Positions 56,497-56,560 of a stretch of DNA of 64,000 bases are shown one piece after another. A model generated the notes under the pieces. That model worked only from the letters and a program-made list of their open reading frames with translations, was not told the DNA's origin and searched no databases. The translations under genes and the position numbers were made by a program. Positions within the stretch are counted from its first letter, which is position 1, and every line of letters begins with the position of its first letter. The stretch is from Escherichia coli. Its GTDB lineage: Bacteria; Pseudomonadota; Gammaproteobacteria; Enterobacterales; Enterobacteriaceae. The DNA lies in NCBI RefSeq assembly GCF_041248615.1, contig NZ_CP158426.1. One strand, 5' to 3'.

Positions 56497-56560
56497 CCCT
56501 AAAAAGCGCACGGACCGTCCCCTCGCCCCTCTGGGGAGAGGGTTAGGGTTAGGGTGAGGG
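56497..56560. repeat. GC-rich intergenic repeat (possibly boxC-type)
   Basis: cccctcgcccctctggggagagggttagggttagggtgagggg between convergent ypfG and tktB; family name recalled with low certainty. Confidence 0.35.

Follow-up and report, generated by a model that had tools for sequence, protein, structure and literature searches.

The G-rich imperfect palindrome located between the convergent genes ypfG and tktB of Escherichia coli is almost certainly a copy of the BoxC repeat, a family that is also known as PIT, TMECO (this copy being of type 'A mm') and HPG1. As an overall explanation, to which we assign a probability of about 0.8, we propose that it is a BoxC repeat carrying a rare slipped allele, and that its hairpin would act as a barrier against exonucleases. 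The family is already known, and this copy is real but ordinary. The original prediction, made on the 64-kb stretch of DNA studied here (the window), had described a dispersed repeat that could act as a terminator or insulator between both genes. The repeat is real, belongs to the dispersed BoxC family and had been correctly located, but the proposed terminator or insulator role was not supported by the analysis.

Organization of the ypfG-tktB Spacer

The G/C-tract sequence maps at positions 56519-56561 (plus strand) of the window, inside the 108-nt spacer (56479-56586) that separates ypfG from tktB (Table 1). The gene names were taken from the RefSeq annotation of NZ_OW967178.1, where the window region 56455-56610, i.e., the spacer and its immediate flanks, is identical; RefSeq annotates nothing in the spacer around the BoxC copy. 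Some small overlapping ORFs that run across the element were rejected, because they have no RefSeq annotation and their sequence is that of a repeat found in unrelated spacers.

Motif searches detected a single copy of the element in the window and 0 chance matches in 100 dinucleotide-preserving shuffles. According to an inverted-repeat search, the element is an imperfect palindrome whose arms (56518-56528 and 56552-56562) are 91% complementary, which confirmed the G-run-rich palindrome that had been predicted between the convergent genes. The sequence CCCCTCGCCCC (56519-56529) pairs with GGGGAGAGGG (56533-56542) with one mismatch, and it can alternatively pair with GGGTGAGGGG (56552-56561). 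Opposite block 2, the G of block 1 gives a G.A mismatch, and opposite block 3 a G.T(U) wobble; this is what the 'A mm' type denotes.

The element had been drawn from position 56497, about 22 nt before the G/C tracts, and this start is justified by the sequence AAAAAgcGCaCGGACcGT, which is conserved among copies and is part of the repeat unit. Judging from sequence comparison, the segment 56486-56569 would correspond to the full BoxC unit at this locus. The less conserved 5' part of the unit contains a small inverted repeat, TGCGC-N9-GCGCA, at 56492-56510. Its minus-strand reading is GCGC-TTTTTAGGG-GCGC, and the T-rich stretch ATTTTGTTT starts about 9 nt downstream; a consensus scan of this minus-strand arrangement found no consensus terminator.

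Table 1. Features of the ypfG-tktB region in the window, and RNA 3' ends as well as regions of Rho termination close to BoxC copies of strain K-12.
Feature	Sequence	Coordinates	Strand	Remarks
ypfG (DUF1176 protein)	window	55435-56478	+	its RNA would contain the G-rich BoxC strand
Hairpin GGGCCAG-N4-CTGGCCC	window	56440-56457	-	perfect 7 bp; inside the 3' end of ypfG; conserved in K-12 and the window
Segment differing between BoxC and REP alleles	window	56486-56569	+	84 nt here, 78 nt in the canonical allele; from allele comparison
Conserved 5' arm of the BoxC unit, tAAAAAgcGCaCGGACcGT	window	56500-56518	+	alignment with five other BoxC loci; weaker similarity back to about 56486
Block 1, C-rich arm, CCCTCGCCC	window	56520-56528	+	'A mm' type
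Loop 1 (CTCTG)	window	56529-56533	+	separates block 1 and block 2
Block 2, GGGAGAGGG	window	56534-56542	+	hairpin with block 1 across loop 1
TTAGGG TTAGGG	window	56543-56554	+	one hexamer is a tandem duplication, missing from the canonical allele
Block 3, GGGTGAGGG	window	56552-56560	+	proposed third strand of a purine-motif triplex, or alternative partner of block 1
Conserved 3' end of the BoxC unit, AA(C/A)A	window	56562-56565	+	alignment of copies
REP tail remnant, GCATCCGGCG	window	56570-56579	+	common to BoxC and REP alleles; 8 nt downstream of the element
tktB (transketolase 2)	window	56587-58590	-	its RNA would contain the C-rich BoxC strand
talA	window	58610-59560	-	beyond tktB
RNA 3' end	K-12	3781065	+	4 nt after block 1:block 2 hairpin; primary 3' end of lldD
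RNA 3' end	K-12	3959467	-	4 nt after block 1:block 2 hairpin; after ppiC
RNA 3' end	K-12	4231270	-	about 3 nt after block 1:block 2 hairpin; yjbD side
RNA 3' end	K-12	847200	-	about 4 nt after block 1:block 2 hairpin; degenerate BoxC copy
RNA 3' end	K-12	632098	+	about 10 nt after block 1:block 2 hairpin; after cstA
Rho-termination region	K-12	388499	-	beyond BoxC 388664-699; upstream gene hemB
Rho-termination region	K-12	3390148	-	beyond BoxC 3390494-529; upstream gene tldD
Rho-termination region	K-12	3607955	-	beyond BoxC 3608684-719; upstream gene tusA
Rho-termination region	K-12	3959177	-	beyond BoxC 3959458-491; upstream gene ppiC

Assignment of the Element to the BoxC Family

The first description of BoxC dates from 1992 (Bergler, 1992), and the name 'potential intrastrand triplex' (PIT) element was used by Hoyne and Maher (2000 and 2002). 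The elements were later collected as TMECO, with 23 K-12 copies in Table 1 of Holder et al. (2015; PMC4666352), and as the HPG1 'G-quadruplex-hairpin-duplex switch' motif (Kaplan et al., 2016; PMC5100583). Apart from one additional TTAGGG, the core found in the window is identical to the K-12 TMECO copies 9, 16, 19, and 22. The canonical allele of the ypfG-tktB spacer, of which AP043959 is a sequenced example, has the core CCCTCGCCCCTCTGGGGAGAGGGTTAGGGTGAGGGG of these four copies.

The homology to accepted BoxC members comprises both the core and the flanks, and the match to other BoxC copies spans about 60 nt. Similar flanks are common to five other BoxC loci, i.e., gntP-fimH (twice), rluF-yjbD, yihR-yihS, and pstA-pstB. 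The alignment of the six copies revealed a repeated unit larger than the 36-nt core, to which it adds the 5' arm AAAAAgyGCmCGGACnGT and the 3' sequence AAmA. An aligned unit longer than the core fits the size of about 56 bp that was reportedly given to BoxC originally.

In a blastn search with a 71-mer query, 5,425 of the 5,426 complete E. coli genomes gave matches; the number of places varied from 3 to 33 per genome, the median being 19. Practically all these places are chromosomal (94,657, or 99.9%, vs. 56 on plasmids). The sequence is not unique, and the dispersed intergenic repeat of E. coli that had been suspected from one copy was borne out: the copies are multiple, dispersed, intergenic, and chromosomal, as corresponds to BoxC. 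BoxC is thus a non-coding unit of the chromosome, about 60-80 nt long and dispersed.

The window copy shares with the BoxC/PIT/TMECO elements the three blocks, the loop 1 CTCTG, the TTA loop type, and the conserved flanks, and it differs from them in a loop 2 of 9 nt (TTAGGGTTA) instead of 3 and in having five G-tracts instead of four. It also resembles HPG1 in the core dGGGAGAGGGTTAGGGTGAGGG, in the upstream C-rich complement, and in the frequent location of that motif between convergent genes. However, the canonical HPG1 motif has exactly four tracts and, according to a rough model, the extra tract of the window means that the G-quadruplex (G4) and the stem need not exclude each other. In K-12, 6 of the 16 HPG1 copies lie between convergent genes and one between divergent genes (Table 1 of PMC5100583). 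Our own count from that table gave, for the tandem contexts, 2 vs. 3 copies in each orientation relative to the upstream gene, i.e., no bias. Such a distribution agrees with an element whose presence at 3' ends is tolerated, or is of use, whichever its orientation.

A scan of Rfam at a permissive E-value found no family for the element; all matches were below the threshold and to unrelated families, the best one (21.7 bits vs. a gathering score of 40) being an unrelated eukaryotic family. A CRISPR repeat was also rejected, given its weak Rfam match (13.7 bits) and the single copy in the window.

The possibility that the sequence is instead a REP/BIME element, or a chance G-rich sequence without any family, can practically be dismissed. 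It would be favored by the REP tail found immediately downstream of the element and by the REPs that K-12 holds at the same site. Nevertheless, the element lacks a GTAG-type REP palindrome, and neither the match of about 60 nt to BoxC copies, nor the failure of shuffled sequences to produce it, nor its presence in about 19 copies per genome agrees with such an origin. The imperfect palindrome of about 35 nt that characterizes REPs (GTAGGCCGGATAAG...CATCCGGC) is not found in the spacer, which contains only the 10-nt tail. BoxC and REP/BIME are alike as dispersed GC-rich extragenic palindromes at the 3' ends of genes, but they are unrelated sequence families: BoxC has no GTAG motif, possesses an asymmetric third G-block, and is much rarer (about 20 copies per genome). 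REPs number about 600 per genome. We know of no RAYT-type transposase for BoxC.

The +6 Allele and Its Probable Origin by Hexamer Slippage

The published TMECO pattern, CCCTCNCCC-N3-6-GGGNGAGGG-N3-GGGNGAGGG, in which loop 2 is fixed at 3 nt, gave 0 matches in the window, and a relaxed pattern with a loop 2 of 3-12 nt gave one match, at 56520-56560. The strict pattern fails because of a 6-bp tandem duplication alone, which yields the loop 2 TTAGGGTTA instead of TTA. It should be taken into account that the TMECO regular expression is an operational search filter and not a definition of homology. With the duplication of TTAGGG, the length of loop 2 increases from 3 nt to 9, and the fifth G-tract appears.

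The exact +6 allele was found in only two of the 5,426 genomes, those of isolate 362 (OW967178) and of NRZ14408 (LT599825). At the same BoxC site, CM138826 carries a different 6-bp expansion, a duplication of TGAGGG, and AP027512 carries (TTAGGG)3, identical to three vertebrate telomere repeats, together with three substitutions in the 5' arm. In total, there are three different +6 alleles of the ypfG-tktB BoxC. A telomere-like (TTAGGG)n sequence was considered and rejected, the resemblance being a coincidence that results from slippage. Another locus behaves in the same way: in strain AH19K002, block 2 of the gntP-fimH BoxC copy contains a duplicated AGAGGG that the orthologous copy of ECCNB20-2 lacks.

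The G-rich half of BoxC is a period-6 array (GGGAGA GGGTTA GGGTGA GGG), and Tandem Repeats Finder detected in the window a period-6 array of 3.7 copies at 56539-56560. The +6 allele very probably arose by replication slippage that duplicated one TTAGGG in this lineage. Since several different 6-bp expansions exist, hexamer slippage in the GGGNNN array is recurrent. The strict published motif overlooks slipped alleles such as that of the window, so that the censuses based on this pattern undercount BoxC.

In species-representative genomes, the relaxed motif was found at at least 120 loci of many phyla and classes. The matches listed are all non-enterobacterial and include Thermodesulfobacteriota, several alpha-, beta-, and gamma-proteobacteria, Neisseria, Synechococcales, Bacteroidaceae, Ignavibacteriales, and Pirellulaceae; among these matches listed, the flanks of the motif are lineage-specific. 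The E. coli BoxC copies described above were taken from BLAST matches and not from this relaxed scan. The presence of the motif in >260 genomes had already been reported (Holder et al., 2015; PMC4666352). We also observed that the blocks CCCTCTCCC / GGGAGAGGG / GGGTGAGGG recur in distant phyla (alpha-proteobacterial and other metagenome-assembled genomes), that in several alpha-proteobacterial genomes the loop 2 has 12-21 nt and constitutes a small GC hairpin of its own, e.g., TGCCCGAAGGGC or TGTCACGCAGTGAC, and that in Thermodesulfobacteriota the upstream sequence CCCCTCACCC turns the element as a whole into a long symmetric hairpin.

REP and BoxC Alleles of the ypfG-tktB Spacer

The ypfG-tktB spacer is dimorphic in E. 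coli. Using queries that mostly consisted of the spacer, extended by 24 nt into the coding sequence at each side, we found the BoxC allele in 830 of the 5,426 genomes and the REP allele, which includes that of K-12, in 4,589, both alleles together accounting for 5,419 genomes. BoxC is thus missing from this spacer in 85% of the E. coli genomes, where REPs fill it instead. K-12 has no BoxC copy at ypfG-tktB, and full REPs are present at the site in K-12, SE15, and others.

The boundaries of the exchange were identical in the seven sequences compared, i.e., ...TTAAACAAAAT / variable segment / GCATCCGGC(G/A)ATCACC... The common flank ends in ...ACAAAAT at 56485 and restarts with GCATCCGGC at 56570, and therefore the BoxC allele retains the REP tail. 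Linkage to the TktB protein WP_000087280.1 was observed for REP as well as BoxC alleles, and one TktB protein is linked to a +6 BoxC allele and to two REP alleles. The REP alleles also vary by tandem duplications, with one or two copies of a 19-bp unit (TGTAGGCCGGATAAGACGC) and one to three copies of a 14-bp unit (GCATCCGGCAATCA), and the spacer is length-polymorphic under either repeat.

Outside E. coli, BoxC was not found in four ypfG relatives located through YpfG homologues. Two of them, with an 85%-identical YpfG, are in related contigs that end in a REP, being broken inside it. In a relative with an 83%-identical YpfG, the stop codons of ypfG and tkt are separated by only about 18 nt and there is no repeat, which indicates that the convergent pair works without any intergenic element. 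Citrobacter farmeri holds 4-5 REPs in the corresponding spacer, and Salmonella has there an extra ORF of 76 aa. Judging from these four outgroup loci, of which two lie on truncated contigs, BoxC at ypfG-tktB is probably the derived state. In a minority of E. coli lineages, BoxC sits in place of a REP, and this locus needs neither repeat. The pstA-pstB and gntP-fimH (AH19K002) BoxC copies were also seen to abut REP sequences. From this it may be suggested that the same spacers accumulate, or are targeted by, both repeats.

A Possible Role of BoxC in Transcription Termination

One possible function is that BoxC acts as a transcription terminator or insulator separating the convergent ypfG and tktB units, a role that was considered plausible by Kaplan et al. 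(PMC5100583) and that we find very unlikely here. Its location between convergent genes, shared with the 6 HPG1 copies mentioned above, its stable GC hairpin, and the RNA 3' ends that lie just after BoxC hairpins at five K-12 loci speak in favor of this role, and a GC-rich stem-loop downstream of stop codons is also what a Rho-independent terminator presents. Unlike such a terminator, BoxC has no U-tract after the hairpin in either orientation, the nearest T5 run of the minus strand starting 13 nt after the stem. A scan for promoter and terminator consensus sequences in 56300-56800 found nothing on either strand. Furthermore, reporter assays revealed neither promoter nor terminator activity of PIT elements (Hoyne and Maher, 2002, in the account given in PMC4666352).

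The Rho-termination regions of K-12 (Adams et al., 2021; PMC7815308, supplementary file 2) provided additional information. At four loci (Table 1) these regions are located 165-730 nt beyond BoxC, so RNA polymerase reads through the element. At the ypfG-tktB locus of K-12, i.e., in a REP allele, the Term-seq 3' end of the tktB strand (2581778, plus strand) is found past the spacer, 5-6 nt after the hairpin GGGCCAG-N4-CTGGCCC, and thus the tktB read-through transcripts appear to end in ypfG antisense and not in the spacer. If we add that most E. coli genomes have no BoxC between these genes, the suggestion of a terminator or insulator is not supported.

RNA 3' Ends at BoxC Hairpins

The curated Term-seq 3' ends of K-12 (Adams et al., 2021; PMC7815308, supplementary file 1) allowed us to compare BoxC positions with mapped RNA ends. 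Five 3' ends lie 3-10 nt past BoxC hairpins, with both orientations of the element represented (Table 1); the coordinate system and the distances of 3781065 and 3959467 were checked against NC_000913.3. The combination of a unique sequence with a lack of transcript ends nearby, which would have spoken against the prediction, is not what we observed: the copies are many, and 3' ends adjoin other BoxC copies in K-12.

Curated 3' ends were found at only about 5 of the roughly 25 K-12 BoxC copies. A genome-wide null would give about 0.25 coincidences (Poisson p ~7e-6), but under a null ten times richer, that of 3' intergenic regions, 2.5 are expected and the enrichment is not significant (Poisson p ~0.1). 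Therefore, the stronger argument is the constant distance from the stem and not the count. When the RNA of the whole spacer (112 nt) was folded, neither strand behaved better than shuffled sequences (z = -1.45 and -0.60); only the local hairpin is notable, with a predicted stability of about -26 to -27 kcal/mol in the G strand and of -20 to -21 kcal/mol in the C strand.

According to the mechanism that we propose, both convergent transcripts would read into BoxC, and the GC-rich block 1:block 2 hairpin would let transcription pass without termination. Rho would terminate the read-through transcripts further downstream, and the BoxC hairpin would then stop the 3'-to-5' exonucleolytic trimming, leaving RNA 3' ends a few nt after the stem, as REP hairpins do. 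This model predicts 3' ends of ypfG near 56546 and of tktB near 56508-56516 in the window. The 3' ends at the hairpin together with the downstream Rho regions fit the known behavior of REPs, and RNA 3' ends adjoin REP hairpins in the same Term-seq data set. REPs are known to protect the upstream mRNA from 3' exonucleases.

By analogy, a REP-like 3'-end hairpin is the best-supported mechanism for BoxC, which we hold with moderate confidence, and we give even odds to the exonuclease barrier operating at the ypfG-tktB locus itself, as extrapolated from other BoxC copies. A wider formulation is that BoxC is a functional analogue of REP that sets and protects mRNA 3' ends after Rho-dependent read-through, with hexamer-slippage alleles that change this behavior. 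This formulation is tentative and more doubtful than the mechanism itself; if true, it would explain why BoxC and REP are exchanged at exactly the same spacer boundaries. Neither Holder et al. (2015; PMC4666352) nor Kaplan et al. (2016; PMC5100583) linked BoxC to mapped RNA 3' ends.

DNA Structures Formed by the G-Rich Strand

The capacity to form unusual secondary structures, also foreseen in the original prediction, is well documented in vitro for the BoxC family. The isolated G-strand forms an intrastrand purine-motif triplex, as detected by CD and NMR with canonical oligonucleotides only, and the triplex-forming element stops the polymerase in primer extension (PMC4666352); a hairpin or a G4, depending on the cation, has been observed by CD (PMC5100583). 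The element of the window fits the canonical G4 motif (G>=3, N1-7, four times), with five tracts (GGGG-AGA-GGG-TTA-GGG-TTA-GGG-TGA-GGGG), and its G4Hunter score is 2.10. In a rough ViennaRNA model with G-quadruplex terms, whose energies are approximate, the four inner tracts of the five-tract allele can fold as a G4 while block 1 pairs with block 3, whereas in the canonical allele the G4 and the stem would compete for the same tracts.

These properties could support a function at the DNA level, i.e., that the triplex or G4 of the unwound G-strand stalls polymerases or promotes recombination and mutation, selection then favoring the element for the local variability that it generates or for its service as a hairpin/G4 switch. 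We consider this unlikely, although somewhat less so than the terminator role. In addition to the structures observed in vitro and to the coexistence of G4 and stem suggested by the rough model, such a function would agree with the higher variability of TMECO loci compared with control loci (PMC4666352), and with the dimorphism and the three independent hexamer expansions of the ypfG-tktB locus. On the contrary, DMS footprinting in vivo revealed no triplex protection, and the addition of the complementary strand rendered a duplex (PMC4666352). PIT elements had no in vivo effect on polymerases, replication, transcription, or conjugation, as far as the work of Hoyne and Maher (2002) is reported in PMC4666352. 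Moreover, the REP alleles of the spacer vary likewise, so this variability is not specific to BoxC, and the ordinary slippage of a period-6 array suffices to account for the hexamer expansions. Within the exonuclease-barrier mechanism, the triplex and G4 folds that the single G-strand adopts in vitro may add to local instability rather than to gene control.

Significance of the BoxC Allelic Series

For the ypfG-tktB locus itself, the finding has little weight, as the family was described in 1992 and restudied in 2000-2002, 2015, and 2016, and most E. coli lack BoxC at this place. Nevertheless, this single spacer offers a natural allelic series, comprised of the REP allele, the canonical BoxC, and three +6 BoxC alleles, that could be used to test the roles of these repeats. 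The published Term-seq data, read against the BoxC positions, suggest that the definition of RNA 3' ends is a function of BoxC. If this is true, the five-tract allele would turn the mutually exclusive hairpin and G4 into a stem that encloses a G4, and the result would be differences between strains in the processing of 3' ends or in fork stalling.
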